The notes under the pieces were generated by a model. That model ran no database searches. It was not told the DNA's origin and saw nothing but the letters and a program-made list of their open reading frames with translations. A DNA stretch of 64,000 nucleotides from Candidatus Levybacteria bacterium RIFCSPHIGHO2_01_FULL_40_16. GTDB lineage: Bacteria; Patescibacteriota; Microgenomatia; Levybacterales; UBA12049. Below, piece after piece: positions 396 through 41,676 of this stretch. How positions within the stretch are numbered: the stretch's first letter is position 1; each line of letters begins with the position of its first letter. The DNA is taken from the NCBI GenBank assembly GCA_001783805.1, contig MFNS01000001.1, positions 128,649 to 192,648 on the forward strand. The letters run 5' to 3'. The position numbers and the translations under genes were made by a program.

Positions 396-863
396 GTGAG
401 ATTAAATCTACCGAAATTAATTGTTTCAATTGCGCTTCCTCTTATTGTTGGTTTTTCAGGTTCTGTTTTTACTGTTTCCGCGGTTCCTACTTGGTATGCA
501 ACTTTGAATAAACCCTCTTTCAGTCCGCCAAACTATCTTTTTGGTCCTGTTTGGACGATTTTGTATATTCTTATGGGAATTTCATTGTATTTTCTCTGGA
601 CCGCCAAGAAAAAAGGAGAAGGAAAAGCAATAAAATTATTCCTAATTCAATTGGTGTTAAATTTTTTCTGGTCAATAATATTTTTTGGATGGCATAATCC
701 GCAAGCGGCTTTTCTCGAAATTATTTCTCTTTGGATTTTTATTTTTCTGACAATCCGCCAATCATTACTTATTTCCAAAACTTCGGCCTATCTTCTGTAT
801 CCTTACCTTGTCTGGGTAAGCTTTGCCTCAATCCTAAATCTTTCCATAGTCCTCCTTAACTAA
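396..863 (+). CDS. tspO: TspO/MBR family tryptophan-rich sensory protein (5-TM membrane protein)
   Basis: ORF translation has the TspO signature WYATLNKPSFSPPNYLFGPVWTILYILMGISLYFLW and multiple hydrophobic helices. The start is GTG at 396, with no in-frame ATG nearby. Confidence 0.8.
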   Translation: MRLNLPKLIVSIALPLIVGFSGSVFTVSAVPTWYATLNKPSFSPPNYLFGPVWTILYILMGISLYFLWTAKKKGEGKAIKLFLIQLVLNFFWSIIFFGWHNPQAAFLEIISLWIFIFLTIRQSLLISKTSAYLLYPYLVWVSFASILNLSIVLLN

Positions 864-915
864 TTTCCTATTGTTTTAGCTTGAATATTTGTTTTTTTAA
901 TGATACTCTACCATT

Positions 916-1194
916 ATGACAATAGAGATGATAGGGAAAAAAGGGCCATTTGGACTGATTAAAAGTCGAAAGGAGGTTTTTCCTTCAAAGCCGTATTCTT
1001 TTATTCCTCCACCCGGAATTTCAAAAAGAGCTATTGAGATTGTAACATCAGATGTAATAAGAGTATGTGACGTTTCAATCAATAACGGAAGTTTACGGGT
1101 CAAATGTTTAAGTGAAGAGCAAATCAATGAGGCAAAATTAACAATTCCCGGAAAAAATGGGAAATCTGTCAAGCTTAGATGGAGACAGGGTTGA
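916..1194 (+). CDS. hypothetical small protein (uncertain; overlaps an antisense ORF 897..1247)
   Basis: 92-aa ORF in the 360-bp gap between tspO and the DUF763 gene. No recognisable motif. Two mutually exclusive ORFs lie on opposite strands, so one or neither may be real. Confidence 0.25.
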   Translation: MTIEMIGKKGPFGLIKSRKEVFPSKPYSFIPPPGISKRAIEIVTSDVIRVCDVSINNGSLRVKCLSEEQINEAKLTIPGKNGKSVKLRWRQG

Positions 1195-1225
1195 TAAATT
1201 TCTTCTTTAGTGCTACCTTGATTGT

Positions 1226-2413
1226 ATGAGAAGAGGGGTAGCCACATTCACATTAGATAGCGGGCGTTGTCCTCCATGGCTTTTTCAAAGAATGGTGGCG
1301 TTGGGGCGGGAAATTATTTATGTCTTAATTGACGAATATGGTCCGGATGAATTCGTCAGAAGGATTGCCGATCCGGTCTGGTTTCAATCTTTGGGAACAA
1401 TTCTGGCTTTTGACTGGAATGCGTCCGGCTTAACGACTATTCTGACAGCCGCCCTGAAAGAAGCAATCCGCGGAGACGAACGAAATCTCGGGTTGTTTAT
1501 CTGCGGAGGAAAAGGCAAAACCTCGCTCAAAACTCCGGTCGAGATAGAAAATTGGGGACGAATACTTAATTTCGATATTGAACAAACTCGCGGCCTCAAA
1601 TTTAGTTCCAAAATGGCCGCCAAAGTAGATAGTTCTCTGATCCAAGACGGTTATTCAATCTATCATCACGCCTTTATTTTTTCCCGCAATGGAGCATGGG
1701 CCGTAGTTCAGCAGGGAATGAATACAGCAAGTTCATCGGCAAGGAGATATCATTGGGGTGATGAACTTGATCTCAAAACTCAAAGCTCAAAACTCAAAGC
1801 TAAGAATTTTACTGAAGAACCACATACGGGTATTGCCTCTCAAGTGTTTGAGAAAAATGTTTTAAACTTGGTGGCCAAGAAAAGCAGAAAGAATAAAGAT
1901 ATTGCCACGCAACTTATTTCCTCAAGTTATATGACGGTAATGAAAAATATTCAATTGCTAAGGTCGCATTTTTCAAGTCTTTCTCGGTCAATAACCCTGA
2001 GAAACGGGGCAGAACAACTAAGTATTTTGCAGTTGTCCGACGAACACTTCAGGACTCATCCGGTTATTCTTGAAGATTTTGGGAAAAGTAAATACCTGGA
2101 AAAAATAATTCAGAAAGTCTGCTTCGAAAAGCCTCAAAATTACGAGCAATTCCTCGCCACCGAGGGTGTCGGGCCCAAAACTGTCCGCGCTTTGTCTTTG
2201 GTATCGGAGGTAATCTATGGAGCGGATCCTTCCTATGAAGATCCGGCCAGATACAGTTTTGCCTTCGGCGGAAAGGACGCCATTCCGTATCCCGTGGACA
2301 AGCCTATCTATGACAAAACCATTTCTTTGCTGGAGCGGGCAATAAACCGATCGAAAATCAATCTTTTCGAAAAGCAGAAGGCTCTGCGCCGCTTAGACAA
2401 AGTTTACAAATAA
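1226..2413 (+). CDS. DUF763-family protein
   Basis: N-terminus RCPPWLFQRMVALGREIIYVLIDEYGPDEFVRRIADPVWFQSLGTILAFDWNASGLTT resembles the conserved DUF763 N-terminal block as I recall it. Carries an in-frame heptamer repeat at 1772-1799 encoding LKTQSSKLKAK. Confidence 0.55.
   Translation: MRRGVATFTLDSGRCPPWLFQRMVALGREIIYVLIDEYGPDEFVRRIADPVWFQSLGTILAFDWNASGLTTILTAALKEAIRGDERNLGLFICGGKGKTSLKTPVEIENWGRILNFDIEQTRGLKFSSKMAAKVDSSLIQDGYSIYHHAFIFSRNGAWAVVQQGMNTASSSARRYHWGDELDLKTQSSKLKAKNFTEEPHTGIASQVFEKNVLNLVAKKSRKNKDIATQLISSSYMTVMKNIQLLRSHFSSLSRSITLRNGAEQLSILQLSDEHFRTHPVILEDFGKSKYLEKIIQKVCFEKPQNYEQFLATEGVGPKTVRALSLVSEVIYGADPSYEDPARYSFAFGGKDAIPYPVDKPIYDKTISLLERAINRSKINLFEKQKALRRLDKVYK
1772..1799 (+). 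repeat. heptanucleotide tandem repeat (CTCAAAA/CTCAAAG)x4 inside the DUF763 CDS
   Basis: ctcaaaactcaaagctcaaaactcaaag, in-frame, encoding LKTQSSKLKA. Confidence 0.8.
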
Positions 2414-5665: not shown

Positions 5666-6026
5666 GAGAAAATTTGCCGCGTATATTTTACTGTTAGGAA
5701 TATTAGGATTTATTGCGTTTTTTTTAAATACATTTTTTGTCTCAGGCAAGCCATTGTTCATCAGCCCAGTCGGCAAAATAAATATTAACCGAGCAGAGGT
5801 TGAAAAGATTCTCAAGAACAATCATGTATCATTTTCCAAAATAATTTCGGAGAATAATTCTTACTTGGTTGATATTTCCAATAACGGACAGGTTCGGCTT
5901 TCTTTGGATAAGGACATTGGACAGCAAATATCCTCTTTACAAAGAATACTCATTCAGCTTACAATAGAAGGTAAGCCATTCAAGAGCATAGATTTTAGGT
6001 TTGCAGAACCTATCATCTCCTTTTAA
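5631..6026 (+). CDS. ftsQ: short FtsQ/DivIB-like cell division protein (N-terminal TM plus POTRA-like segment)
   Basis: 131 aa with a basic N-terminus, one TM helix and then a small extracytoplasmic domain. Sits in the canonical ftsQ slot between murG and ftsA but is much shorter than typical FtsQ. Confidence 0.4.
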   Translation: MPMNPRQQKNLKRKFAAYILLLGILGFIAFFLNTFFVSGKPLFISPVGKININRAEVEKILKNNHVSFSKIISENNSYLVDISNNGQVRLSLDKDIGQQISSLQRILIQLTIEGKPFKSIDFRFAEPIISF

Positions 6027-6033
6027 TAAAAGT

Positions 6034-7326
6034 ATGAGTGAGGGTAAAATAATTGTAGGCGTTGATATCGGTACCTCAAAAATTGTCACCATCATTGCCA
6101 GGGTTGATGAAGAGTTCGTCAACGTCCTGGGAGTTTCCGAAGTTCCTTCCCGCGGAGTCAAAAAAGGCCAGATTGTCGACATTAAAGAAGCGGTAGAATC
6201 CATAAATAATTCGCTGGATGGGGCGGAAAGAATGGCGGGACATTCAGTAGGGAGTGTCGTGGCTTCAATCGGAGGAAGTCAAATCGAGTCACAAAATTCC
6301 AGGGGCGTTGTGGCTGTCTCTTCATCTGCAGGCGAAATCACAGAAAGTGATCTTGCCCGGGTAATTGATGCTGCCAAAGCTGTCTCTCTTCCCTCCAGCC
6401 GTCAAATTCTTCACGTTCTTCCCCGCAATTATGCGGTAGATGGACAAGAAGGAATAAAAGATCCCCTTGGTATGATTGGAATAAGACTGGAAGTTGATAC
6501 GCATATTATCTCGGCTGCTTCTCCGTCTTTGAGTAATTTGGAAAAAGTTTTTTCTCAAGTCGGCATTGATATCGACGGCGTTGCTTTCAGCGGATACGCG
6601 TCAAGTCTCGCGGTTTTATCCGAAACAGAGAAGGAGCTAGGGGTTGTGCTGGTAGATATTGGAGCGGGAACAACAGATATTTCCATTTATTCCGAAGGAT
6701 CGGTTGCTTATTCTTCTGTCCTGGCAATTGGGGCAAGGCATATTACCAATGATCTGGCAATAGGGCTTCGGATTTCTTTGGAATCCTCGGAAAAGATAAA
6801 GATCTATCTGTCTAATATGTCAAAAAGACCCAAAATTGAAAGATTAGGAGAGACTTTTGAAAGAGAGGCCAGGAATATTGATGAAATAGATTTAAGTTCT
6901 TTGGGACTTACCGAAGATTTGCGGAAAGTTTCCCATAAAACACTAACTGACGGAATAGTTAGACCGCGACTTAATGAGATTTTTACCATGATCGGAATGG
7001 AAATAAAAAGATCAGGATACGCGGGCCAGACTCCTGCGGGAATTGTAATAACCGGGGGAGGGGCATTAACGGTCGGGGCAGCGGATAGCGCGAAAAGAAC
7101 CTTGGCAATGCCGGTTCGAATTGGAACTCCAATTAACATCAAGGGGTTAATTGATGAAATACAGTATCCTTCTTTTGCCTCCGTTGTCGGATTGGCGGTT
7201 TTCGGGGCAACTCTGGATATTAAACCGTCTTTGCCTTTCGGACTAAGCCTGCCTTCGTTTGGAAATTTGGGTATTAATCGGATATTTTCCAAAGTTTTTA
7301 AATTTATAAAATCTTTTCTGCCCTAA
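6034..7326 (+). CDS. ftsA: cell division protein FtsA (actin-like ATPase)
   Basis: IVGVDIGTSKIVTII phosphate-1 motif, DIGAGTTDISIY and GIVITGGGAL actin-fold motifs. An alternative TTG start at 6001 is possible. Confidence 0.9.
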   Translation: MSEGKIIVGVDIGTSKIVTIIARVDEEFVNVLGVSEVPSRGVKKGQIVDIKEAVESINNSLDGAERMAGHSVGSVVASIGGSQIESQNSRGVVAVSSSAGEITESDLARVIDAAKAVSLPSSRQILHVLPRNYAVDGQEGIKDPLGMIGIRLEVDTHIISAASPSLSNLEKVFSQVGIDIDGVAFSGYASSLAVLSETEKELGVVLVDIGAGTTDISIYSEGSVAYSSVLAIGARHITNDLAIGLRISLESSEKIKIYLSNMSKRPKIERLGETFEREARNIDEIDLSSLGLTEDLRKVSHKTLTDGIVRPRLNEIFTMIGMEIKRSGYAGQTPAGIVITGGGALTVGAADSAKRTLAMPVRIGTPINIKGLIDEIQYPSFASVVGLAVFGATLDIKPSLPFGLSLPSFGNLGINRIFSKVFKFIKSFLP

Positions 7327-7382
7327 ATGGACTCATTGACTTTTGCGAAATTGGGTGTTAGGATAAGTTGAATCGATAACTT

Positions 7383-8501
7383 ATGTTAATCAAACCTCAA
7401 ACAACTAACTTTGCCAAAATCCGGGTTTTGGGTATAGGCGGAGGAGGAATGAATGCGCTCAATTCCATGATTAAAATTAGCGAGGTTAAAGGGGTTGATT
7501 TTATTTCCGTAAATACCGATGCGCAGGTTCTTCTGCTGTCGCAATCCCCAACCAAAATTCAAATTGGAGAAAATCTTACCAAGGGTTTGGGTAGCGGCGG
7601 AAATCCGGATATCGGACGTCAGGCCGCCGAGGAATCTTATGAAAAAATAAAAGAATTTATTGATGGGTCGGACATGGTTTTTATCACAGCCGGTATGGGA
7701 GGCGGAACCGGTACTGGAGCAAGTGCGGTAATTGCCAGAGCCGCAAAAGAAGTTGGCGCTTTGACTGTGGCAGTTGTGACCAAGCCTTTTGCTTTTGAAG
7801 GAACCAGAAGAATGGTCGTGGCAGAAGACGGGATCGAAACTCTCCGAGACAAAGTGGACACGCTCATAGTTATTCCCAACCAAAGAATTCTGGATGTAGT
7901 TGACAAAAAAGTATCCCTTCTTGAAGCCTTTAGAATTGCAGATTCCGTACTAACGCAAGGGGTGCAAGGAATCTCCGATTTAATTACAATTCCGGGACTA
8001 ATCAATGTTGATTTCGCAGATGTAAAAGTCATTATGAGTAATGCCGGGTCGGCTTTGATGGGAATTGGTACCGGAGTTGGAGAAAATAGAGCGCAAACCG
8101 CAGCCCGCAGCGCAATTGCGTCTCCGCTTTTAGAAATTTCCATGGATGGAGCCAGGGGAGTTCTGTTTAACATTACCGGCGGGCCTGATTTGACAATGAC
8201 GGAAGTTGATGAGGCTGCCAAAATTATCTCCTCTGCTGCTGATCCTGATGCAAATATTATTTTCGGCGCGACAATTGATGAGGCAATGCATGACCAGATA
8301 AAAATCGCGGTTATTGCAACAGGTTTTGATCACGCCAGACAAACTCTTAAAGAATTTGTCAAGCCCTTAATAAGTCCGGTTGAGCCAAAACAGGAGTTAG
8401 CAAATGATACTCCGCAAGCGCCAAAACCGCAGGAAACGCCTGTTGAAGACAATAGCGACGACGCCTGGGACATCCCCGCATTCCTAAGACAGAGAAATTA
8501 A
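7383..8501 (+). CDS. ftsZ: cell division GTPase FtsZ
   Basis: Tubulin signature GGGTGTG ([13 protein letters not shown]), the NTDAQ motif, and an acidic C-terminal tail ending [10 protein letters not shown]. Confidence 0.95.
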
Positions 8502-8505
8502 ATTT

Positions 8506-8817
8506 ATGGAAGCTGGAAGACCGATTTTAGATAAAGGTAAACTCTACGAATTGACAGGAAAAGAGCAGGTTTTATTTTCTCTGTCTATCGGCTATGAACG
8601 TACTAGCAAAAAAGAAATAGAAACCGATTTAAAACTCAAAGAACTTAGGAAAAAGATTTCAAGTATAGCTAAATTTATGAATGAGCAAGTCATGCCGGAG
8701 GATTCATCATCTCTTGGTGCTGGCGATTATTATCGTGACGTTAGAATTGTAGTTAGACGGGATCCAATTACTGGACGTATGACAAAGGGATTTACTCTGA
8801 TCGGTGTTGTAAGATAA
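8506..8817 (+). CDS. hypothetical protein (co-directional, 5 bp after ftsZ)
   Basis: 103-aa ORF tightly coupled to the ftsZ stop. No recognisable family. Confidence 0.45.
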   Translation: MEAGRPILDKGKLYELTGKEQVLFSLSIGYERTSKKEIETDLKLKELRKKISSIAKFMNEQVMPEDSSSLGAGDYYRDVRIVVRRDPITGRMTKGFTLIGVVR

Positions 8818-8849
8818 TATCTCTTAATATAATTTCTCCGCCGGAGGAA
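8818..8849. terminator. possible bidirectional terminator hairpin between convergent genes
   Basis: TCTCCGCCGGAGGA forms a short GC stem (CTCCG/CGGAG) flanked by A/T-rich sequence on both sides. Weak. Confidence 0.25.
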
Positions 8850-9290
8850 CTAACTATTATTTAAGCTTCTTAGGTCTGAGAAGTTTTTTAGATAAAACCA
8901 AACCGCAACCAGCACAGTCAGTACACTGATGATCCAGCCAAAATAGTCCCCATAGAAAATGTGGTAAAAAGTGGATGTGGAATCAAGGACGATCGGATAC
9001 CATGAATAAACAACATTAATTAAATTAAATAACGACAAAAGGCAATAAATAATTAAATAAGTTTTGGCTTGCTTACTTAAGCCTATTGCCACAGCCAGCA
9101 AGGGAAACACCGGATACATATATCTGTCATGCATGCCGGGAAGAAAAAGGAAAACCAGAAAAGCAAAAAAGAAAACAAGAATAAAGATAAGAGCAAATTT
9201 ATTTATTTTCCATTTCATTTTTAAATCATACATTAAGAAAATAGAAAAGTAAAAATAAGAAATGTTAATTCTTGACTTATCCCCATTCAA
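8850..9290 (-). CDS. hypothetical integral membrane protein
   Basis: 146 aa with several hydrophobic helices. Convergent with the previous gene. AT-rich. Confidence 0.45.
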   Translation of the reverse strand: MNGDKSRINISYFYFSIFLMYDLKMKWKINKFALIFILVFFFAFLVFLFLPGMHDRYMYPVFPLLAVAIGLSKQAKTYLIIYCLLSLFNLINVVYSWYPIVLDSTSTFYHIFYGDYFGWIISVLTVLVAVWFYLKNFSDLRSLNNS

Positions 9291-9326
9291 TTGCTAATCT
9301 TAAGACAGAGGAATCGGTTGTCTATA

Positions 9327-9640
9327 TGAATAAAGAATCTGAGAATAAAGATTCTGATGTTCCGGAAACATCTCTAAATTTAGAAGAGCTTCAAAGAAGA
9401 AAGGATCGATTTCCGCAAGCTTTAGTTGGTCTTTCTCTTGCAGAAAAGCTTGCCAAAGCAAGCGGGAGTACTCATATTTATGAAAAATCACGGAAAAAAG
9501 GCGATAATCTGGTAATACTTGCGGTTGATAAACAGACAATACGGGCGATAAATGGGGGAATTAAAAAAATGTATATGGGTTTGGTTCAAGCCGGGCAGAA
9601 AAAATTTGCAGATAAAATTCTCCAAGAGAATAAGAAATAA
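9327..9640 (+). CDS. hypothetical protein
   Basis: ORF 9272..9640; the ATG at 9327 (MNKESENK...) is the more plausible start. Charged, no TM helix, no recognisable motif. Confidence 0.4.
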
Positions 9641-9749
9641 CCCCAGCAAAAAGCATCTTTAGGACGGGTGATGTAATTATAGGTTAGGAAAATATTAGCC
9701 GCAACAAACGCATAAAACCAAAATTGAAAAGGAGTTAGACCAAAACCGG

Positions 9750-10646
9750 CTAGTCTCTTAATTTTTTATAAAAAATTACCGCAAATATGCTTATAATTAT
9801 CAGCCCGATTATTGTGAATATCCATAGCCACAGATGGGACGGTTCGGGTTCCTTGATGCTAACTCCGATGATCATTGTGCCATTGCTTCCTGCTACATTG
9901 ATAATTTCTTTTGAAAGTACAACGCCTTTTTGCGAGAGAGTCAAGACATGTACTCCTTGAGGAACTTTATCAAACTGAAAGCTGTCACTTGCTATCCTCG
10001 CCCCCTGAATATTGGAATCAAGAAAGGCATTGGCATCCGATAACGCAAGAGCCTTTGACGTAGAAACGTTGTAAATAATTGAATAAAGCATTTCCCCTTT
10101 AGGCCCGATAATTGGCGCTTGAATCGGAGTCGGCTGGCTTGACGATCCAACATTTGGACTTTGAATAATTATGTAGCTGGCATTTCCTAAAGAGCTTAAT
10201 ATGTCTGCAGCGCCCTTTTGGGACTTCAAAGAAGCATTGGAAAGAGCAATGGTGCCAACGCCTTCCGCAGCGGCTTTTAGCGCAAGAGTATATACGGTAC
10301 AGCCAGTTCTGGAACCTCCCAAAATGACTCCCGCAAAAGACTGATTTGTTGAGGTTGGTGTACGGACAAAAGCAAAGCCGCAGTCGCCGATAGTCAGAGA
10401 CTGTACAGTGAGAGACGGACTAATATTCACGGTTGATTTAGCAGCGTTAAATGCAATACCGCCGCCGTTAATATTGACAGCAACTTGAAATATATCTCCC
10501 TTTTTGTAGGTAGACGTATTGGGGGTAATATTGATACTTCCTCCGGCTGCCACCATTTTTGGCGTAGTTACGTGTATCGCAATTGCTGTAAATACGGCTA
10601 AAAACAAAATTAAAAATTTATACTTAGTTTCCATAAGCTTTTGCAA
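9750..10646 (-). CDS. cohesin-like domain surface protein with C-terminal TM anchor
   Basis: N-terminal signal/TM. The module NINGGGIAFNAAKSTVNISPSLTVQSLTIGDCGFAF...FAGVILGGSRTGCTVYTLAL is paralogous to the module in the adjacent gene. Hydrophobic C-terminal anchor WIFTIIGLIIISIFAVIFYKKLRD. Confidence 0.55.
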   Translation of the reverse strand: MQKLMETKYKFLILFLAVFTAIAIHVTTPKMVAAGGSINITPNTSTYKKGDIFQVAVNINGGGIAFNAAKSTVNISPSLTVQSLTIGDCGFAFVRTPTSTNQSFAGVILGGSRTGCTVYTLALKAAAEGVGTIALSNASLKSQKGAADILSSLGNASYIIIQSPNVGSSSQPTPIQAPIIGPKGEMLYSIIYNVSTSKALALSDANAFLDSNIQGARIASDSFQFDKVPQGVHVLTLSQKGVVLSKEIINVAGSNGTMIIGVSIKEPEPSHLWLWIFTIIGLIIISIFAVIFYKKLRD

Positions 10647-11808
10647 GAATTGAGAAATCGGTTAAATCAATAAGGCCATCGTTATTCATGTCGGACAAGG
10701 CATAATTAAGATTACCTATATTTTCCCAATCTGTTCCAAACATGGAAAGGTCTGTCAGATCTATAATGCTATCGCCGTTAATATCGCCGGGCCTATGAAC
10801 ATTAATAGTAATACTCACATTCGAACTTTTATTACCGAGATTATCCTGACCGTAGACAATAAATGTATTTGAAGCAAGTGTCAGGGTTGCCGGATATTGC
10901 CAGGTTGTTGAAGTTGGGTAAGTTGTAAGACTTGCATCACTATTTATGTAAACGCTTGCAACAATTATATCTTTAGCTCCCGTTAGGTTAAGTGAAATAG
11001 AATAGGTATCTAAGGGCTGTTGATCAATTGTCGGTGGAGGAACAACCGCAATTGTTGGGGCAGGAGTCGGAGTGTCGGTTGGGACAGACGTTGGAGTGGG
11101 GGTTGGGGCAGGTGTTGAAGTTGGGGTTGGGACAGGTGTTGAAGTTGGGGTTGGGGAAACAACAGGATTAATGGTGTACGAGCCGCTTTGCAGAGAAAGA
11201 AGTATTTCAGAGTTATTACTGTAGGCTTTTACGGAACCTTTGCTTAAAGTAATAGTACCGGTTCCCGCTCCATTTGCCGAAAGAGTAAGTGAGTAAAGAA
11301 TACATTGTGTTGAAGATCCATTTAAAATAGCCCCTGCGAAGGATGGATTACCGGGTGTAGGAGTTGCTTTTTGATTGGGAAAAGTGAAGTTGCATCCTCC
11401 GGAGGGTGCAGGCACAATATCGAGTGTCTGTACAGTGAGATTGCTAGAAACTGCAACTGCTGCTTGGGCCGCGTTAAATGCTTGTCCTCCCCCGGATATC
11501 ACAAGATTAACTATAAATTGCTGGCCGATTGAGTAAGACCCGGACGGCGGAGAAACACTAATAGTTGCAGTTTTATTTGCTGCAGCATTGGGAATAAAGA
11601 TCTGCTTGTTGGCTACAATAAAAGGAGTAGAAAAAGCAATAAGCAAAAAAATGACAATAGTAAATTTTAAAAATCTATCCAGCGATATAAATTCATCCCA
11701 AAGACTTTGTAGAATATTTTCTGTAGGTTCAGTGTCTTTGCCTTTGTACCTGGTTCTAACTGAAATAATCTTCGGCATATTTAGCCTATGTTTATAGTAT
11801 AGTGTCAA
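10624..11808 (-). CDS. secreted cohesin-like domain protein with Pro/Thr linker and C-terminal type-I dockerin
   Basis: Paralogous module VISGGGQAFNAAQAAVAVSSNLTVQTLDIV...FAGAILNGSSTQCILYSLTL. PT-rich linker PTPTSTPVPTPTSTPAPTPTPTSVPTDTPTPAPT. C-terminal duplicated Ca-binding dockerin repeats DINGDSIIDLTDLSMF and DMNNDGLIDLTDFSIL. Confidence 0.6.
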   Translation of the reverse strand: MTLYYKHRLNMPKIISVRTRYKGKDTEPTENILQSLWDEFISLDRFLKFTIVIFLLIAFSTPFIVANKQIFIPNAAANKTATISVSPPSGSYSIGQQFIVNLVISGGGQAFNAAQAAVAVSSNLTVQTLDIVPAPSGGCNFTFPNQKATPTPGNPSFAGAILNGSSTQCILYSLTLSANGAGTGTITLSKGSVKAYSNNSEILLSLQSGSYTINPVVSPTPTSTPVPTPTSTPAPTPTPTSVPTDTPTPAPTIAVVPPPTIDQQPLDTYSISLNLTGAKDIIVASVYINSDASLTTYPTSTTWQYPATLTLASNTFIVYGQDNLGNKSSNVSITINVHRPGDINGDSIIDLTDLSMFGTDWENIGNLNYALSDMNNDGLIDLTDFSILAKAYGN

Positions 11809-11866
11809 AAGTAGCAGTTTTTGTCAACTGGTTAACTCAAGGGATTTTATTTTGTGTGGAATTAGT

Positions 11867-12667
11867 TTATTTCTGGGCCAGGATGACGAAGGTGAAGAGC
11901 TTGTTTCCATTGCCAAAATCGCGTTCGTACAAGGCTATGTGTCCGTTGTTTCTTAATTCGCGGCCCCAATCGCTGCGGTTCTCAAAATCACCCTCCAAGA
12001 TTCCCAGGGAAACAGACAAGCCAAACGGCAATTTCTGGGTGCTACTTTGGAGAGTTGAAGAGGTATCAAGATGGGCGTAAATTATTTCCAGTTCCTCATA
12101 GTCGTGAGCATTGGGATGCTGGTTTGACTCCGGGCTGCTGGTATAATCCATGCATGTTCCCATGTTGGAATTACTAAAATTCTCATCCTGATGGTCCAAT
12201 CCTAAAGTATGTCCGACTTCCTGACACATGACCAGATTCTTCCAGGCAGTCGTGTTGTACGGTGCGTTATTAAAATAAGTATCATTAACTTTCGTCACAC
12301 CTTTACTAATGTGTACTCCGCTCACCCAAATTTGCGCTAAACCAAGCCAGCCGTTATTGCCGTATTTACTGTTGCAGACCTCTACGCGTCCGCTGGTTGC
12401 CCGGCAATTTCTAGGCTTGGTTAAGCCCGGGACAATATTCGTATCAAGAACGGATGAGATACTCCAGTCGGAAGATGTGCTTGCAAGATGCGGATCCCAG
12501 GTTGAGGAAAGGTTGTCTCCGAGATTCAGAGTGAAAGGATTGCCGGTGCGTGCCCAGTGGTAACCGCCCCACGAATGGTTTGCGGCAACGCCTTTGGCAA
12601 AAGTGGTCAGAAATAACACCGCGCTCAGAATAACTAAGAGAAGTAAACGCATTCTGATTTTTAACAT
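11867..12667 (-). CDS. secreted metzincin-like zinc metalloprotease (variant QExxHxxGxxH motif)
   Basis: Signal peptide MLKIRMRLLLLVILSAVLFL. Motif VMCQEVGHTLGLDHQDE aligns to the metzincin HExxHxxGxxH with Gln at the first His position. The cag codon was verified in the DNA. Confidence 0.55.
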   Translation of the reverse strand: MLKIRMRLLLLVILSAVLFLTTFAKGVAANHSWGGYHWARTGNPFTLNLGDNLSSTWDPHLASTSSDWSISSVLDTNIVPGLTKPRNCRATSGRVEVCNSKYGNNGWLGLAQIWVSGVHISKGVTKVNDTYFNNAPYNTTAWKNLVMCQEVGHTLGLDHQDENFSNSNMGTCMDYTSSPESNQHPNAHDYEELEIIYAHLDTSSTLQSSTQKLPFGLSVSLGILEGDFENRSDWGRELRNNGHIALYERDFGNGNKLFTFVILAQK

Positions 12668-12810
12668 TCTGTAAATATGCTAGCAAAGATTTTCACGTAA
12701 ATCAAGTCAGGAATTCAATAATTCAGCACTTTTTGTTAGAGAGGTTGACAACAAGCTTAGTTTGTGAAAATATTATTATAGGGTTAAAAAAAATTAGGAG
12801 GTGAAATAAA

Positions 12811-13362
12811 ATGGCAAAATCAGGAATAAAGAGAAGCCCGTATTTGTTATCTGCAATCTTGGGTTGGGCTATAGGAGTCTTTCTGCTTGTTTTTATTATT
12901 AATAATCAAACTAACAGCAACGTTAAGGGAGTAAGCACAGGATTTGATCAGTACGGCTACAACAGAACTGCAAGAAATTTTGTTGGTCCTGCCGATGGAG
13001 TAGATAGGGTGTTAGATGGCAAAGTTTGGGGAGATTCCACATATGCCAAAGATAGATTGGTCATGAAATGGAATGCAGAATGGGATAAGGGAAATGCTGA
13101 AGGTTGGAAGAAACCGCCATATAATGCCTGGACCGACAATGAGTGGAATGGAATGGTTCCAAACGGTAGCGGTGAAACCTGGCATTACAAGATAGTTTGG
13201 GTAGGTCCTTGTGGCGCAGCCGGAATACCAGTGTCAAGTGGTGGATATTGCATTTGGGGACAGTTTGCAGTCATTCTCTCTCAAGGAACATTTGCCGGTC
13301 AACATTTCTGGGATGTGTTGGCTAGACCTGCCGGTTACGGATCTTATTATTCTATTCCTTAA
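12811..13362 (+). CDS. secreted/anchored Trp-rich hypothetical protein
   Basis: Strong SD AGGAGGTGA eight nt upstream of the ATG. N-terminal TM/signal (LLSAILGWAIGVFLLVFII). Trp/Gly-rich body with no known family. Divergent from the protease gene. Confidence 0.5.
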   Translation: MAKSGIKRSPYLLSAILGWAIGVFLLVFIINNQTNSNVKGVSTGFDQYGYNRTARNFVGPADGVDRVLDGKVWGDSTYAKDRLVMKWNAEWDKGNAEGWKKPPYNAWTDNEWNGMVPNGSGETWHYKIVWVGPCGAAGIPVSSGGYCIWGQFAVILSQGTFAGQHFWDVLARPAGYGSYYSIP

Positions 13363-13451
13363 ACGGCATAATTTGTTCTAAACAAAATTTATTCTGGAAT
13401 AGAACAGTCCATCTGGGAAATCTGGTGGAGGTTTGTGTGGAAAAAAGAGAG

Positions 13452-14066
13452 TTAGAAGCCGAGTTTTTCCTTGACGAAGATTAAAGTTATCCGATTGGGA
13501 ACAATCTCTTTATTAATTATTAATAATTTGCTGACATTGCTTCTTTCCATGCCGTATGCTTTTTTCACTCTTTCCGATTCAAGAGGTAAAACATAATCAT
13601 AAATTCTCTTCATGCCCTCTTCCAAATTGGCAACAATTTTTTGTGTTCCGACCACCCAGAGCACATGGGAAGCTCCATAAACGTAGGCCGGCAATTGGCT
13701 GCCCGTATTTGAGGCAATTAATACTTTCCCGTCCCCTGTAACCGCGTGGACACTGCCAATGGCGTATTCCGGAGCTGCACCCATTTTCTGCATTTCCCTG
13801 CCTTGGGTTTTTCTATCCATTTTTTCCAGCTTTACTTTTACCGAATTATATTTTCCGGATTCGTTTATTTCCTTTGGAAGTTCCAGCGTATCAATTGTAG
13901 TTGAGGACATATTCATTACTTCAGCATTTTGAGGTAATAATTCCAGTACTTTTTTCTTAGCCTCCTGACCATTTTCGACAACTATTGCATTTATTCCGTT
14001 TGCTTTTAAAGCTTCAATTGTTTTTTGAATATCCTCCGGACTTGCCAATTCTCCCCAATCTTTCAT
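13452..14066 (-). CDS. LUD (lactate utilization C-like, DUF162) domain protein
   Basis: About 200 aa, with IGSVHAVTGDGKVLIASNTGSQL and YGASHVLWVVGTQKIV blocks resembling LUD-domain proteins. Confidence 0.5.
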   Translation of the reverse strand: MKDWGELASPEDIQKTIEALKANGINAIVVENGQEAKKKVLELLPQNAEVMNMSSTTIDTLELPKEINESGKYNSVKVKLEKMDRKTQGREMQKMGAAPEYAIGSVHAVTGDGKVLIASNTGSQLPAYVYGASHVLWVVGTQKIVANLEEGMKRIYDYVLPLESERVKKAYGMERSNVSKLLIINKEIVPNRITLIFVKEKLGF

Positions 14067-14122
14067 AGCTTAATCATACCACACTTCTTGATACGTCATT
14101 CCTTTTAAGCTACAATTAATCC

Positions 14123-17107
14123 ATGAAACCCGTAAAACAGAATATAAATTTTCCGGAATTAGAAAGAGAAATTCTAAATAGATGGCAGGAGAAAGGAATT
14201 GTAAGAAAGTATTTAGAAAAAAATAAAAACTCAAAAGAAAAATTTTCTTTCCTTGATGGTCCGATCACCGCAAATAATCCAATGGGAGTTCATCATGCTT
14301 GGGGAAGGACATATAAGGATTTGTGGCAGAGATTCTGGAATATGCGGGGAAAAGCTCAAAGATTTCAAAATGGGTTTGACGAACAAGGGCTTTGGGTTGA
14401 AGTGGAAGTGGAAAAAGAATTGGGGCTGAAAAATAAAAAAGACATTGAAAATCTTGTTCCGGGAGACAAATTTAAAAGTCTCGTAAAATTTATTAATCTT
14501 TGCAAGCAAAGGGTTAAAAAATTTTCGGGAGTCCAGACAGAACAAAGTAAGCGTTTGGGATACTTCATGGATTGGGACAAATCCTATCACACCTCCTCCG
14601 ATAAAAATAATTATGCGATCTGGAATTTCTTAAAAGTTGTCCACGAAAAAGGTTGGCTGTACAAAGGCCGTGACTCTGTTCCCTGGTGTCCGCGCTGCGG
14701 AACCGCAATTTCCCAGCACGAGATTTTGACAGAGGAATATAAAAATATAACCCACGATTCGATCTATGTTGAATATCCGATTAAAAACAGGAAAAACGAA
14801 TATTTAATTGCTTGGACAACAACGCCCTGGACTTTAATTGCCAATATAGCTCTTGCCGTAAATCCCAATTACGATTACGTAATTGCAACAGGGGAAGAAA
14901 AGGGAAATATATATTATCTGCTTAAAGAGAGCGCGGAAAAATTAGGTCTTAAAATCAAAAAAAATATTAAAGGAAAAGATTTGATCGGACTAAACTATTC
15001 TTCTCCTTTTGATAATTTACCAAAAGTGAAAAAAACACTGGGGAAATATCTGCATCAAGTTATTGCTACAGACGAATTAATTCTGCCAATCAGTAAAATT
15101 GAAGGAACAGGAATTATCCATATCGCCACCGGATCGGGAAGCGAAGATTTTCAGCTTGGTAAAAAAAACAATTTACCGGTAATTGAAGTTATTGACGAAG
15201 GAGGGAATTATCTGGATGGTTTTGGAGAATTTAGCCAAAAAAATGCCAAAAGGCATCCCGAATTAATCATTGACTTTCTTAAATCTTTCGAAAATGGCAA
15301 CTACTTTTTCCTAACGGAAAAATACACCCATAGGTATCCGACTTGCTGGAGATGTAAAACGGAATTGGTTTGGCGAGTGGTTGACGAATGGTATATTGCG
15401 ATGGATAAAAAACCCAGCTCAAAGTTCAAAGCTCAAAGCTCAAGGCCAGAGAATAAAACTTATAGGGAGCAAATGGTTGAGGTGGCAAAGAAGATTAATT
15501 GGATTCCCGATTGGGGTTTGGATCGCGAACTGGACTGGCTTAAAAATATGCATGATTGGTTGATTAGTAAAAAAAGATATTGGGGGTTGGCTTTGCCAAT
15601 TTGGGAATGTCATAAATGCGGAAATTTCGAAGTGATTGGCGGAAAAGAGGAGCTTAAAAAACGTGCAGTTAAAGGTTGGGGAGAATTTGACGGCAATAGC
15701 CCGCACCGGCCTTGGGTGGACTTGGTAAAAATTAAGTGCAGTAAGTGCGATGAAGTTGCTTCCCGAATTCCTGATGTGGGAAATCCCTGGCTGGATGCGG
15801 GAATTGTTCCGTTTTCCACCCTGCCGAAAGAATGGTTTCCGGCAGATTTCATAACGGAGAGTTTCCCCGGGCAGTTTAAAAATTGGTTTTATTCTCTGAT
15901 TGCAATGTCCACTGCGCTTAAAAAAATCAATTCCTTTAAAACGGTTTTGGGGTTCGCATCGGTCAGAGATGAAGCAGGCGAAGAAATGCACAAGAGTAAA
16001 GGAAATGCAATTGAATTTAATGAGGCAGCGGATAAAATCGGCGTTGATGTAATGCGCTGGATGTATTTAAGACAGGATCCCGAACAAAATCTCAATTTTG
16101 GAGTCAATGCCGCTGACAATGTCAGAAGACAATTTCATTTAATGTTGTGGAATGTATATAATTTCTTTATTTCCAATGCCATTGCCGACAGCTGGACGCC
16201 TCAGGGGATGGAAAAACAATCGGAAAACGTTCTGGACAAATGGATAATATCCAGGCTAAATAAATTAATTAAGGTTGTTACTGCGTCACTTGAAAAATAT
16301 AATTCCTTTTCTGCCGGGAATGCTATTGAAAATTTTCTCAGTGATTTGTCACTTTGGTATGTCCGCCGGTCACGCGAGAGAATCGGATTGTCTGCCGAAG
16401 ATGCAAAAGACAAAAATAATTGCTATCAAACTTTATGGGAGGTTTTAGCCAGCCTTTGCCAAATTCTAGCGCCTTTCACGCCATTTATGGCAGAAGAAAT
16501 GTATTTAAACTTAACGAATAAGGATTCGGTGCATTTAAGTGCTTGGCCGGAAGTCGGAGATATCGATGAAAAGCTGGAGCAGGAGATGGATTTTGCCAGA
16601 AAAATTTGTGAAATGGGGCATGCAAAAAGAAAAGAAGCGCTGATTAAAGTCAGACAACCCCTGGCACAATTAACAATTAATAATTCGCAATTAACAATTA
16701 ACGGCGAGATAGTTGAGCTGATTAAAGACGAATTGAATATTAAAAAAGTGGTTTTTGAAAAAGGAAAAGGAGAAATGTCAGTGTCCCTTGATGTAAATTT
16801 AACCAAGGAATTGAAAGAAGAGGGGAAAGCGCGGGATATTGTAAGAATGATTCAGGGCGAGCGGAAAAAAATAGGGACAGCATTGGATGAAAAAATAGAT
16901 GTTGTCCTCAAGGATTGGCCAAGAGAATTCGAAAATGAAATAAAAAAGAAAGCAATGGTTGCAACCTTAAAAAAGGGAAATAATTTTGAGGTTGTCCGCA
17001 AACCCCGCATCGACAGTCATGCATTAGAAACGCTTAACTTTTCACATCGCGCATCTTCGCTAAGTCCACGCTCAAATAAACGTGGCATTGTGGTGCGGGG
17101 TAAATGA
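14123..17107 (+). CDS. ileS: isoleucine--tRNA ligase (class I, type 2)
   Basis: HIGH-region variant PMGVHHAWGRTYKD, KMSKS variant MHKSKGN, four Cys knuckles (CPRCG, CWRCK, CHKCG, CSKCD) and a CP1 editing region. Contains in-frame heptamer repeats at 15419-15446 and 16686-16720. Confidence 0.95.
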   Translation: MKPVKQNINFPELEREILNRWQEKGIVRKYLEKNKNSKEKFSFLDGPITANNPMGVHHAWGRTYKDLWQRFWNMRGKAQRFQNGFDEQGLWVEVEVEKELGLKNKKDIENLVPGDKFKSLVKFINLCKQRVKKFSGVQTEQSKRLGYFMDWDKSYHTSSDKNNYAIWNFLKVVHEKGWLYKGRDSVPWCPRCGTAISQHEILTEEYKNITHDSIYVEYPIKNRKNEYLIAWTTTPWTLIANIALAVNPNYDYVIATGEEKGNIYYLLKESAEKLGLKIKKNIKGKDLIGLNYSSPFDNLPKVKKTLGKYLHQVIATDELILPISKIEGTGIIHIATGSGSEDFQLGKKNNLPVIEVIDEGGNYLDGFGEFSQKNAKRHPELIIDFLKSFENGNYFFLTEKYTHRYPTCWRCKTELVWRVVDEWYIAMDKKPSSKFKAQSSRPENKTYREQMVEVAKKINWIPDWGLDRELDWLKNMHDWLISKKRYWGLALPIWECHKCGNFEVIGGKEELKKRAVKGWGEFDGNSPHRPWVDLVKIKCSKCDEVASRIPDVGNPWLDAGIVPFSTLPKEWFPADFITESFPGQFKNWFYSLIAMSTALKKINSFKTVLGFASVRDEAGEEMHKSKGNAIEFNEAADKIGVDVMRWMYLRQDPEQNLNFGVNAADNVRRQFHLMLWNVYNFFISNAIADSWTPQGMEKQSENVLDKWIISRLNKLIKVVTASLEKYNSFSAGNAIENFLSDLSLWYVRRSRERIGLSAEDAKDKNNCYQTLWEVLASLCQILAPFTPFMAEEMYLNLTNKDSVHLSAWPEVGDIDEKLEQEMDFARKICEMGHAKRKEALIKVRQPLAQLTINNSQLTINGEIVELIKDELNIKKVVFEKGKGEMSVSLDVNLTKELKEEGKARDIVRMIQGERKKIGTALDEKIDVVLKDWPREFENEIKKKAMVATLKKGNNFEVVRKPRIDSHALETLNFSHRASSLSPRSNKRGIVVRGK
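15419..15446 (+). repeat. heptanucleotide tandem repeat (CTCAAAG-like)x4 inside ileS
   Basis: ctcaaagttcaaagctcaaagctcaagg, encoding SSKFKAQSSR in a segment of IleRS between WYIAMDK and REQMVEVAKKINWIPDWG. Confidence 0.8.
16686..16720 (+). repeat. heptanucleotide tandem repeat (CAATTAA)x5, one variant unit, inside ileS
   Basis: caattaacaattaataattcgcaattaacaattaa, encoding LAQLTINNSQLTING. Confidence 0.8.
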
Positions 17108-18180
17108 GACGCTCACTTTTTAATATTGACTGGGGATTGTTAGCTCCGGTAATTGTTTTGGTAATCCTAAGTTTAACCACTATTTTTTCCCTGGATCTAA
17201 ACTTATTCAAAAGCCAGTTTACTTTCTTTATTATCGGAATCTTCGCTTTTTTATTCTTTTCTCAAGCAAATTACAGGACCGTAAGACTCTACGGGTTACC
17301 GATTTACCTAATTTCTATTGTTTTGTTAATTATAGTTATAATTATTGGAGTTGAAGCCAGGGGGGCTGTCAGATGGTTCACGCTTTTTGGATTTAGAGTG
17401 CAATTTTCGGAGATTCTGAAACCCTTCCTGGCAATTTCTCTTTCCGGATATCTTTCTTCCAGGAATGATTATTCTTTAAAAACTTTATTTATGGTAATTT
17501 GTTTTTTGCTGCCGGTTGCTCTCTTGGTTTTTTGGCAGCCGGATCTGGGAAACACCCTAATCTATGTTTTGGTAACAATTATTGCGCTCATAGTTTTTGG
17601 TTTTCCTTTTAGATTCTTTTTTTTAGGATTAGTTTTTTTATCAATACTTTCTCCCATCTTTTGGAGATTTTTACATGATTATCAAAGACAGCGGATTTTG
17701 ACTTTTTTAAATCCCAGTGACCCTTTGGGATTGTCTTATAATGCCATTCAGTCGGTTATCGCTGTAGGATCAGGAATGCTTTTGGGCCGCGGATTAGGGT
17801 TGGGAACACAATCCGGCCTTAGGTTTCTGCCTGAACGGCATACTGATTTTATTTTCGCGACTTTATCCGAAGAATTAGGACTGATTGGCGCAGTTTTGCT
17901 GATTATAACTTTTACATTTTTGCTGTACAAAATTTTCGCAATTTTCCGTGGGCAGGATGAGTTATTCTCTAAAACATTTTCTGCAATTGCATTTTCCTTA
18001 ATTTTTCTCCAATTTTTTGTAAATATAGGTATGAATATCGGAATCCTTCCCATAGTTGGAATAACTCTCCCTTTCGTCTCCTATGGAGGAAGCTCTTTAC
18101 TTTCCAACTTTATTCTTCTTGGAGCACTCTCCGGCATGAATAGAGGAAATTCATCGCATAAAGTCCTGGAAATTAAGTAG
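17104..18180 (+). CDS. rodA: SEDS family protein (RodA-like peptidoglycan polymerase)
   Basis: Second SEDS paralogue with IDWGLL near the N-terminus and the C-terminal LPFVSYGGSSLLSNF block. Start overlaps the ileS stop (ATGA). Confidence 0.8.
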   Translation: MRRSLFNIDWGLLAPVIVLVILSLTTIFSLDLNLFKSQFTFFIIGIFAFLFFSQANYRTVRLYGLPIYLISIVLLIIVIIIGVEARGAVRWFTLFGFRVQFSEILKPFLAISLSGYLSSRNDYSLKTLFMVICFLLPVALLVFWQPDLGNTLIYVLVTIIALIVFGFPFRFFFLGLVFLSILSPIFWRFLHDYQRQRILTFLNPSDPLGLSYNAIQSVIAVGSGMLLGRGLGLGTQSGLRFLPERHTDFIFATLSEELGLIGAVLLIITFTFLLYKIFAIFRGQDELFSKTFSAIAFSLIFLQFFVNIGMNIGILPIVGITLPFVSYGGSSLLSNFILLGALSGMNRGNSSHKVLEIK

Positions 18181-18203
18181 ATTTTTTGGTATAATTAATT
18201 TTT

Positions 18204-18530
18204 ATGGAATACGCAATCGTAAAAATAGGCGGAAAACAATATAAAGTCTCCAGGGGCTTAGTAATTGAGGTTGAAAGACTTGACTATAAGCCCGGAGAGA
18301 AATTTTCTTTGGAAGAAGTCCTTTTATACGTTTCCGATGGCAAGGTCAGGTTAGGCAAGCCCAGAGTTAACGGCGCCACAGTTAAAGCGGAAGTTTTGGA
18401 GCATTTTAAGGGAGAGAAACTGCGGATTGCCAAATTCAAGGCAAAAGCCAAATACAGAAGAGTAACCGGGCACAGGCAATATTTAACGAAAATCAAAATT
18501 CTTGATATCTTGACAGCTGTAAAAAAGTAA
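18204..18530 (+). CDS. rplU: 50S ribosomal protein L21
   Basis: MEYAIVKIGGKQYKV N-terminus typical of bL21. Followed by rpmA as in the conserved rplU-rpmA pair. Confidence 0.9.
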   Translation: MEYAIVKIGGKQYKVSRGLVIEVERLDYKPGEKFSLEEVLLYVSDGKVRLGKPRVNGATVKAEVLEHFKGEKLRIAKFKAKAKYRRVTGHRQYLTKIKILDILTAVKK

Positions 18531-24038: not shown

Positions 24039-24039
24039 T

Positions 24040-25740: not shown

Positions 25741-25826
25741 TTGTAATTATTGAATTTTATCATTTATTCTTTAGAAAAGTAAATTAGTTATTATTTGATG
25801 CTATAATATGAATTATTGTCCTAGAT

Positions 25827-28286: not shown

Positions 28287-28323
28287 TTAATCAATATCAA
28301 TATATCATACATTATATTTTTTA

Positions 28324-30724: not shown

Positions 30725-30741
30725 ATGGGCTATAATGCGGT

Positions 30742-33916: not shown

Positions 33917-33927
33917 TTGTTAAACTT

Positions 33928-39287: not shown

Positions 39288-39291
39288 TCAC

Positions 39292-41546: not shown

Positions 41547-41558
41547 AATTTACTCCAG

Positions 41559-41630: not shown

Positions 41631-41676
41631 ACAAGGATATTCTACAATAAAATAGGGCTAAATTGGAAGTCATTGA

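Follow-up and report, generated by a model that had tools for sequence, protein, structure and literature searches.

Two adjoining genes, here called A and B, lie on the minus strand of the 64-kb stretch of DNA that was analysed (hereafter the window), which belongs to Candidatus Levybacteria, a member of the Microgenomates group with a genome of ~776 kb. A preliminary description of this DNA had already reported an adjoining minus-strand pair in a CPR-like genome, and the open reading frames sit exactly where it had placed them. The longest of these frames span 9750-10646 for A (298 aa) and 10624-11808 for B (394 aa, with a TTG start at 11808). The true starts are most likely ATG 10634 for A and ATG 11778 for B (MPK...), since the genes were deposited in this form and these starts match all homologues. 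The features of the pair are as follows.

9750..10634, minus strand: gene A, 294 aa; hypothetical protein A3B47_00025 / OGH24839.1
10548..10634, minus strand: A, predicted signal peptide, residues 1-29; Ala at -1 nearly invariant (…MVA/AGG)
10161..10541, minus strand: A, predicted cohesin-fold module, residues 32-158; pLDDT 90-97
9855..10094, minus strand: A, stalk, a second beta-sandwich, residues 181-260; CarboxypepD_reg / EMC7-like
9768..9833, minus strand: A, C-terminal transmembrane (TM) anchor, residues 268-289, then basic tail KKLRD
10624..11778, minus strand: gene B, 384 aa; hypothetical protein A3B47_00020 / OGH24840.1
11611..11664, minus strand: B, core of the N-terminal TM helix, hydrophobic residues 39-56; AF2 helix 35-61
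11164..11574, minus strand: B, predicted cohesin-fold module, residues 69-205; pLDDT ~98; paralogue of the A module
11038..11163, minus strand: B, Pro/Thr-rich linker, residues 206-247; pLDDT < 50 for 209-243 (disordered)
10801..11037, minus strand: B, Ig-like beta-sandwich ('mid'), residues 248-326; abuts the dockerin, in an X-module-like position
10627..10797, minus strand: B, dockerin, residues 328-384; two 12-residue Ca loops (DINGDSIIDLTD, DMNNDGLIDLTD) and two helices
10624..10634, minus strand: 11-nt A/B overlap, the end of B (…Y-G-N-stop) over the ATG of A; ATGGAAACTAA

An identical 11-nt overlap recurs in three other loci of the family (L001, L002 and L012), which suggests that B and A are translationally coupled. 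Promoter and terminator sites between 9200 and 13000 were no commoner than in shuffled sequences. The pair is located among cell-division genes, and an island of envelope-glycan genes lies about 10 kb away. A metalloprotease and a Trp-rich secreted protein next door had been pointed out at the same locus, but they are not conserved with the pair: they recur beside it only where this one genome is present in further copies, and we therefore do not count them as components.

Protein A consists of a signal peptide, a cohesin-fold module, a linker, a beta-sandwich stalk, a C-terminal TM helix and a KKLRD tail. Its signal peptide is probably cleaved after residue 29, A29 being conserved in at least 90% of the aligned A-type homologues. 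The stalk corresponds to PF13620 in homologues and has structural matches in 6ww7_G and 9c7v_B. As had been noticed from the start, the protein ends in a hydrophobic membrane anchor (residues 268-289), which is spanned by helix 267-293 of the predicted model.

Protein B is built in the order N-terminal TM helix, cohesin-fold module, Pro/Thr linker, Ig-like module and dockerin. The linker and the beta-rich region that follows it, both previously pointed out, are recovered in the sequence and in the predicted model. The Ig-like module is weakly related to Glucodextran_B and is followed by the dockerin after a gap of only 0-3 residues, in B as in the whole family, with no linker in between. Neither this direct junction nor the N-terminal TM helix of B appears in the preliminary description. 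Homologues have N, H, R or Q at position -3 ahead of the module, so that the helix is probably a signal anchor that stays uncleaved, and the ~38-aa segment that precedes the helix would be cytoplasmic. Distant B-type proteins begin instead with ordinary, cleavable-looking signal peptides. Neither SLH domains nor LPXTG motifs were found in A or B, and surface anchoring would rely on the TM helices at residues 268-289 of A and 39-56 of B.

Dockerins are defined by a duplicated 12-residue EF-hand-like Ca loop, each copy being followed by a helix (reviewed in PMC12484212). The type-I duplication described earlier for the end of B is indeed there: the loops DINGDSIIDLTD and DMNNDGLIDLTD lie 31 residues apart, helices are predicted at 341-349 and 372-381 (pLDDT 88-97), and all Ca-ligand positions are complete. 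Pfam Dockerin_1 (PF00404) matches B above its gathering threshold (score 27.9 bits, cut-off 22.9; E = 2.7e-6) over profile positions 1-54 of 57, and a solved dockerin, 2y3n_B, is matched with E = 1.4e-4. The same profile also matches 34 of 41 large relatives. Two 12-residue loops are found in 145/152 family dockerins, with D or N in 83-100% of cases at Ca-ligand positions 1/3/5/9/12 (position 1, D 100%; position 3, N 83-90%; position 5, D 97-99%; position 9, D/N ~100%; position 12, D 100%). Judged by its residues, the B dockerin has both calcium loops intact.

A and B align with 40% identity over 171 aa (BLASTP, E = 1e-22) through a shared module of ~130 aa, a paralogy far beyond chance. The paralogy claimed in the preliminary description thus stands, with module lengths of 128-137 aa rather than about 140. 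Its motif is also present in both proteins (GGG-x-AFNAA ... TVQ-L ... C-F ... SFAG-IL-G-S ... C-x-x-Y-L) and is kept across the family, with invariant columns P, N, C, P, S, C and G. Assignment of these modules to cohesins was borne out at the level of fold and not at that of the Pfam profile. Structure prediction gives a cohesin beta-sandwich for both modules, which superpose on solved cohesins across nearly their entire length; sequence identity to these cohesins is only 10-19%. Pfam Cohesin (PF00963) has no match in A or B at E <= 1, and matches 2/38 family modules (best E = 0.014), while BatD/DUF11 is weakly matched by 12/38. A profile of the module retrieves three cohesins among PDB sequences (E = 0.09-0.26); a single-sequence search of the same set gave chance-level antibody matches only, and a search of NCBIfam gave nothing useful. 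The preliminary description had treated the lack of a significant Cohesin match as a refutation, and formally that match is lacking. We consider this too strict and have set it aside, because the module is so distant from solved cohesins in sequence and the fold is unambiguous. According to these models, the module is a highly diverged cohesin subfamily that Pfam misses. Classical cohesins are not characterized by its invariant Cys pair or its FNAA motif.

The module subfamily is large, with 182 clusters (at 50% identity) at E <= 1e-30 and 2009 at E <= 1e-3. In 36 loci, of which 29 are non-redundant, an A-type gene is directly preceded by a dockerin-ending gene of the same orientation. The pairing holds in 29/29 non-redundant informative loci (Patescibacteria/Microgenomates); it is interrupted only by four truncations at contig ends and by a single case of a second A-type gene in tandem. 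Across 271 proteins of the family, no architecture other than A-type or module-Ig-dockerin contains the module, a restriction that links it to the dockerin in the Rosetta-stone manner. A and B carry one module each, and their relatives at most 2-3. In addition, large dockerin-only proteins adjoin the pair in L002, L003 and L008; L002 has dockerin-tagged GSDH-PKD and arabinofuranosidase-C-like proteins beside the pair. No further dockerin protein was found within the window.

We also compared divergence between domains in an exploratory mirror-tree analysis. Dockerin divergence correlates with that of the cohesin-like modules at r ~0.6 and with that of the fused Ig domain at r ~0.3 (bootstrap fraction at or below zero, 0.001-0.004), correlations that are confounded by rate and noise. 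When the comparison is restricted to the orthologous first module or to single-module proteins, the dockerin follows the A module (r = 0.61) and the module of B itself (r = 0.59) indistinguishably, with a bootstrap fraction at or below zero of 0.41. An apparent preference for the A module (r = 0.63) over that of B (r = 0.37) was rejected as an artefact of the divergent second module of two-module proteins.

A cohesin-like fold could occur without being a dockerin receptor. The module might instead be a generic adhesin, a glycan-binding domain or a dimerization beta-sandwich, and the dockerin might have another partner or none, such as glycans of the host or of the bacterium's own cell wall; glycan partners have been proposed for other non-cellulosomal dockerins. 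We regard this as quite unlikely. Cohesins make up the top 17 fold matches of either model and align over almost the whole module (120-129 residues), the module is always accompanied by a dockerin, either within its own protein or in the neighbouring gene, and the dockerin co-varies more strongly with the modules than with its fused Ig neighbour.

Shared module, dockerin and a pair kept in 29 loci together resemble the plug-and-socket of cellulosomes, reduced to a minimum and tethered to the membrane. The analysis establishes domain identities and folds, the operon structure and the strict pairing in 29 loci. We propose, with a probability of roughly 60%, that the two-gene operon of A and B, conserved in Patescibacteria of the Microgenomates type, encodes a small membrane-tethered surface cohesin-dockerin complex, in which the cohesin of A holds the dockerin of B. 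Docking between A and B is what we infer from the module's fold, from domain fusion and from the strictness of the operon pairing; membrane topology, Ca-dependent binding, the identity of the partner cohesin and the biological role are proposed alongside it. A would be exported and held by its C-terminal TM helix, its stalk lifting a single diverged cohesin module above the membrane. The dockerin of B would then plug into a cohesin-fold module in a Ca-dependent manner, the most economical choice being the module of A, its operon partner. A would thereby act as a single-cohesin anchoring scaffoldin in which a TM helix does the work of SLH domains or sortase. B would be a miniature primary or adaptor scaffoldin, its own cohesin still available to another B or to additional dockerin proteins. 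Such roles correspond better to an anchoring scaffoldin with a mini primary scaffoldin than to a scaffold with an enzyme, because B is N-terminally membrane-anchored and its dockerin directly follows the Ig-like module, as in the X-Doc dyads of scaffoldins. Here, tethering B through A looks redundant, since both proteins appear to be anchored in the same membrane; where distant B-types have cleavable-looking signal peptides, A would be the only membrane tether encoded in their operon. Because B-type relatives carry enzyme or lectin heads, holding such domains and displaying them at the cell surface would be the task of the pair.

The choice of A as the partner has a competitor. The dockerin of B could bind B-type modules, either in cis, giving a closed, auto-inhibited form, or head-to-tail among B molecules and other module-Ig-dockerin proteins, giving a non-covalent surface chain or fibre. 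A would cap or anchor this at the membrane, or would pair with B through module-module contacts. Every family dockerin protein does bear at least one cohesin-like module of its own, two in 18-20 cases, and the dockerin co-varies as strongly with the first module of B as with that of A (r = 0.59-0.64). Moreover, the AF2 model of B reaches a pTM of 0.70 despite a disordered linker of 35 residues, which may hint at a defined arrangement of module, Ig domain and dockerin. Self-association nevertheless leaves unexplained why an A-type gene comes next in 29/29 loci, with translational coupling. A-type and B-type modules also form distinct subfamilies, the latter having an insertion of 5-9 residues, and in cellulosomes distinct module subfamilies usually accompany distinct specificities. 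We thus consider self-association unlikely, though worth keeping in mind.

Returning to docking of B on A, the arrangement can be compared with several known systems. The module order of B echoes the Coh-X-Doc end of CipA from Clostridium thermocellum (CohI9-X-DocII; 3kcp, 4fl4), and Foldseek aligned ~360 columns of B to this region (3kcp_A, 4fl4). Identity is only 10-13%, however, and the dockerin of B is Pfam type-I-like and internally symmetric. CipA with its type II anchoring scaffoldins combines nine cohesins, a CBM and an SLH anchor, whereas A and B have one cohesin each, no CBM and a TM helix; the host here is a CPR bacterium, and the window is without cellulases. Likewise, the Ig-like module directly N-terminal of the B dockerin recalls the X-Doc dyad of type II/III scaffoldins, a likeness of position only. 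ScaE of Ruminococcus flavefaciens is attached covalently via sortase. Like A, it is a single-cohesin cell-surface anchoring scaffoldin (2zf9; X-Doc partners), but A has a C-terminal TM helix instead, and ScaE and its partner are not encoded as overlapping genes in a strict 1:1 operon. Around the non-cellulosomal cohesin of Archaeoglobus fulgidus, an archaeal protein with 12% identity (2xdh), we know of no conserved operon of the A/B kind. The toxin complexes of Clostridium perfringens (GH33/GH84 cohesins; 2vo8, 2w1n, 2o4e) consist of large enzymes that are secreted and lack a dedicated cohesin partner anchored in the membrane; in contrast to A/B, they have no conserved module-Ig-dockerin cassette. 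Cellulosomes, for their part, are attached to the cell surface through SLH domains or sortase (PMC12484212).

The presence of cohesin and dockerin genes in Microgenomates was already known from one passing mention. Bell et al. (2022, ISME J; PMC9123182) reported, in one sentence, expression of such genes in Cand. Shapirobacterales and read them as a cellulosome. These genes come from a MAG of the same CPR supergroup and were annotated with cohesin and dockerin domains; unlike the present analysis, that report gives no operon, architecture, fold or family analysis. A genuine cellulosome for the degradation of plant polysaccharides could also be argued from the GH44, GH16 or CBM96 domains of some family members, but we find it highly improbable for this pair. 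The Pfam search revealed no catalytic or carbohydrate-binding module in B and no CBM in either protein, and each protein has a single cohesin. No dockerin-bearing CAZyme was found within the window, and the genomic setting is one of cell division and envelope glycans. Although the B-type heads of relatives include GH16, GH44, LCAT/lipase-like, Laminin_G_3 (lectin), CBM96, beta-helix and propeller domains, most are lipase-like, lectin or propeller, not cellulases.

SEML1_0315 of the cultivated Saccharibacterium Southlakia, an essential dockerin protein (Wang et al., 2023), was considered for comparison and rejected. It is a 927-aa Ig-rich protein without an A-type neighbour, and its essentiality thus cannot be transferred. 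Attachment to a host cell, suggested earlier as a role for the pair, is speculation. One can go further and imagine a CPR-specific, wall-independent organelle for surface display or attachment, in which TM-anchored A nucleates a Ca-dependent, non-covalent 'cohesin-Ig-dockerin' chain whose links bear differing enzyme or lectin heads, replacing sortase or SLH domains in these reduced genomes and contacting or digesting the envelopes of hosts or neighbours; this extension we hold to be distinctly doubtful.

The best reading of the A/B pair is that it extends the range of non-cellulosomal cohesin-dockerin systems. Little is known of the surface organization of CPR/Patescibacteria or of the way they attach to partners, and the label 'hypothetical' still applies to the majority of their surface proteins. 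Two of these, OGH24839.1 and OGH24840.1, now gain a concrete, testable identity, and a diverged cohesin subfamily is defined that is always tied to a dockerin in a two-gene cassette. Cohesin and dockerin annotations in CPR MAGs should not be taken as a sign of cellulosomes or of the degradation of cellulose. Provided that the docking is real, the pair would offer synthetic biology a compact new orthogonal plug-and-socket, and cohesin-dockerin assembly would reach, in a membrane-anchored 1:1 format, beyond the cellulolytic Firmicutes.

The two adjacent minus-strand genes reported in the preliminary description were recovered as open reading frames at 9750–10646 (298 aa) and 10624–11808 (394 aa). 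Both products are deposited as 'hypothetical protein', the downstream one (A) as OGH24839.1 (294 aa) and the upstream one (B) as OGH24840.1 (384 aa), in records whose organism is Candidatus Levybacteria bacterium RIFCSPLOWO2_01_FULL_39; the lineage of the window is Patescibacteria group, Microgenomates group. Family alignments show that the deposited starts are common to all homologues. With these starts, the ATG of A lies within the last codons of B in an 11-nt overlap, ATGGAAACTAA, also found at three other loci carrying the pair (L001, L002 and L012). The paralogy claimed for the modules of A and B is real, as BLASTP aligns their N-proximal parts with 40% identity across 171 residues (E = 1e-22). 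The shared motif that had been read from the sequence is present in both proteins, and the hydrophobic C-terminal tail of A, the Pro/Thr linker of B and both dockerin loops of B (DINGDSIIDLTD and DMNNDGLIDLTD) were likewise confirmed. The predicted membrane topology and domain order are as follows.

9750–10634, minus strand: A, 294 aa
A, N-terminus: signal peptide, Ala at -1 nearly invariant in the family alignment
A, residues 32–158: module, followed by a short linker
A, residues 181–260: second beta-sandwich, CarboxypepD_reg/EMC7-like
A, C-terminus: transmembrane (TM) helix followed by a basic tail (AlphaFold2 model)
10624–11778, minus strand: B, 384 aa
B, N-terminal ~38 aa: putative cytoplasmic segment
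B, residues 35–61: TM helix (AlphaFold2 helix)
B, residues 69–205: module, followed by the Pro/Thr linker
B, residues 248–326: Ig-like domain, abutting the dockerin
B, residues 328–384: dockerin, two predicted helices, pLDDT 88–97 (AlphaFold2)

The N-terminal segment of B (…LWDEFISLDRFLKF…) is conserved in close homologues; distant homologues with the architecture of B have ordinary, cleavable-looking signal peptides in the alignment.

Sequence searches say little about the module. Pfam Cohesin matches neither A nor B, and the module as a single sequence gave nothing informative against PDB sequences or NCBIfam. Homologues were gathered for A (39) and B (206) and used for two family alignments and one of the module only. 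The profile of the latter reached just three PDB sequences; each is a cohesin of Ruminococcus flavefaciens, and none of the E-values (0.09–0.26) is significant. Among 38 single modules compared with Pfam, two gave a weak match to Cohesin (best E = 0.014) and 12 a weak match to BatD (best E = 1.6e-4). The AlphaFold2 models have mean pLDDT values of 88.4 for A (module 90–97) and 85.9 for B (module ~98, Ig-like domain 95–97, Pro/Thr linker <50). Searched with the B model, Foldseek independently returned cohesins (E = 6e-9 to 1e-7, probability 1.00, target TM 0.67–0.74), bearing out the fold that had been proposed, and aligned B with the CohI9-X-DocII fragment of CipA (3kcp_A, 4fl4) over ~360 columns. 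On these matches to predicted models, the common module is a diverged cohesin-fold domain, with 10–19% identity to solved cohesins; it combines the fold and a dockerin partner in the genome with the lack of a Pfam HMM match. The preliminary description had taken a missing Cohesin HMM match as grounds for rejection, which formally applies, yet we consider this standard too strict given the fold result. Family-specific invariants of the module include an FNAA motif and a Cys pair, which probably forms a disulfide.

The dockerin of B is recognized directly by Pfam Dockerin_1 (27.9 bits against a gathering score of 22.9), and the C-terminus of B matches the solved cellulosomal dockerin 2y3n_B (E = 1.4e-4). 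Two 12-residue loops occur in 145 of 152 family dockerins, spaced by 31 residues in 134, and ligand positions 1/3/5/9/12 are D/N, essentially invariant family-wide, which fits the definition of type I dockerins (PMC12484212). B itself shows the HMM match, the loops and the helices of this type. No further module or dockerin was found in the 64-kb window beyond A and B.

Against 1.84 billion cluster representatives, the module HMM matched 182 proteins at E <= 1e-30; relaxing the cut-off to 1e-10 and 1e-3 raised this to 306 and 2009. Among 271 fetched family proteins, the module has two arrangements and no others: it is joined to a C-terminal TM helix, as in A, or it belongs to a cassette of one or two modules, an Ig domain and a dockerin, in some proteins preceded by a hydrophobic N-terminal segment. 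Proteins as long as 1317 aa can also end in this cassette, and the heads of these large proteins include GH44, GH16, LCAT/lipase-like, Laminin_G_3, CBM96, beta-helix and RCC1/Kelch/PQQ propeller domains.

Loci from exact-protein look-ups, species-representative genomes and metagenomes were scanned by six-frame HMM. At 36 of them (29 non-redundant), the A-type gene is directly preceded on the same strand by a gene ending in a dockerin; the only exceptions are four A-type genes cut by contig ends and a second tandem copy at L023. The latter locus (643–2383, plus strand) has one dockerin gene followed by two tandem A-type genes, the sole duplicated anchor among the loci. Named source organisms are Levybacteria, Microgenomates or 'Patescibacteria group'. 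Three third-party-annotated MAGs (L005, CAZEGF010000023.1; L007, CAYTCO010000009.1; L008, CAYOTA010000013.1) are titled 'uncultured Gammaproteobacteria bacterium', probably a mis-assignment, since every other named source is Patescibacteria.

The most economical model is that A would be a membrane anchor with a single cohesin, and that the Ig-dockerin end of B would plug, Ca-dependently, into a cohesin-fold module, most likely that of A, since every genome has A and B as co-translated partners. For a secreted, unanchored B, the operon would encode no tether apart from A, and the cohesin of B would then be free for further dockerin proteins. We infer the binding, its Ca dependence and the biological role (enzyme display, adhesion or host contact). 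In an exploratory mirror-tree analysis of 23 non-redundant pairs, the dockerin correlated at ~0.6 with cohesin-fold modules and at ~0.3 with its fused Ig domain, a significant difference by taxon bootstrap. This supports co-evolution of the dockerin with cohesin-fold modules and counts against the rival that the cohesin-fold domain binds another ligand, which still stands. The same analysis does not separate the module of A from that of B, and self-association or a daisy chain of B stays in contention beside the anchor model. An apparent dockerin preference for the module of A in a first mirror-tree pass was an artefact.

Large dockerin-only proteins adjoin the pair at L002 (9637–16996, minus strand), L003 (7564–8433) and L008 (7577–8455). 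They have no cohesin-like module, their genes converge on the pair, and they are candidate cargo for free cohesin modules; the B-type protein at these loci has two modules. Three consecutive dockerin-only proteins, each with its dockerin at the C-terminus, comprise one of 779 aa (function unassigned), one of 910 aa with GSDH and PKD, and a partial one of 726 aa with an alpha-L-arabinofuranosidase-C-like region. A true cellulosome is unlikely: in the window we found no multi-cohesin scaffoldin, CBM, SLH/sortase or CAZyme cargo.

The metalloprotease and Trp-rich protein described next door are present, but recur only in copies of the same genome and are not part of the conserved unit. The first (11867–12667, minus strand; 266 aa, secreted) has weak zincin matches (Reprolysin_5, E = 0.004; Peptidase_M10, E = 0.03). 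Its motif, CQEVGHTLGLDH, has Gln in place of the first His of the canonical HExxHxxGxxH, and the protein is perhaps an atypical metzincin or an inactive one. The second (12811–13362, plus strand; 183 aa) has a hydrophobic N-terminal segment, and neither Pfam nor NCBIfam matches it. In Levybacteria-like genomes (window 6001–18530, L001, L010, L012), the pair lies inside or beside the cell-division/cell-wall cluster, between ftsA-ftsZ and ileS-ftsW-rplU-rpmA-parB; in other lineages it lies among glycosyltransferase genes. A convergent gene of 202–205 aa without Pfam match directly follows the A-type gene at L001 (8987–9604, minus strand) and L002 (9004–9612, minus strand), in unrelated neighbourhoods. 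In the window, G+C falls from ~0.40 to 0.30–0.34 at ~22000–42000, a surface-glycan island with GT2 glycosyltransferases, at least five PMT_2-type membrane glycosyltransferases, a Wzx-type flippase (Polysacc_synt), a Wzy_C O-antigen-ligase-like protein and a C-methyltransferase. There, a 235-aa protein (40839–41546, minus strand), adjoined by a PMT_2 glycosyltransferase gene (39292–40839), has two Glucodextran_B/bacterial Ig-like domains (E = 2.8e-19) and is matched by the HMM of the Ig-like domain of B (E = 7e-6). Cellulosomal linkers become glycosylated, and it is tempting to speculate by analogy that the island enzymes could glycosylate the Pro/Thr linker of B.

B resembles the Coh-X-Doc end of CipA in function and architecture, its Ig-like domain directly adjoining the dockerin as in an X-Doc dyad, and A resembles ScaE, the single-cohesin anchoring scaffoldin of R. 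flavefaciens. By fold, the structures nearest to the module are non-cellulosomal cohesins of A. fulgidus (2xdh) and C. perfringens (2vo8). Cohesins and dockerins outside cellulosomes are known in all three domains of life (Peer et al., 2009, as cited in PMC10066038), lone dockerins have been recorded in Omnitrophota and Saccharibacteria, and expressed cohesin/dockerin genes of a Microgenomates MAG were read as a cellulosome (Bell et al., 2022; PMC9123182). In the literature searched, we found no description of this diverged cohesin subfamily, of the strictly conserved overlapping two-gene cassette or of its anchoring by a TM helix. Docking, the key functional step, is what we infer; the domain assignment of the pair is solid and gives work on CPR surface biology something testable to start from.
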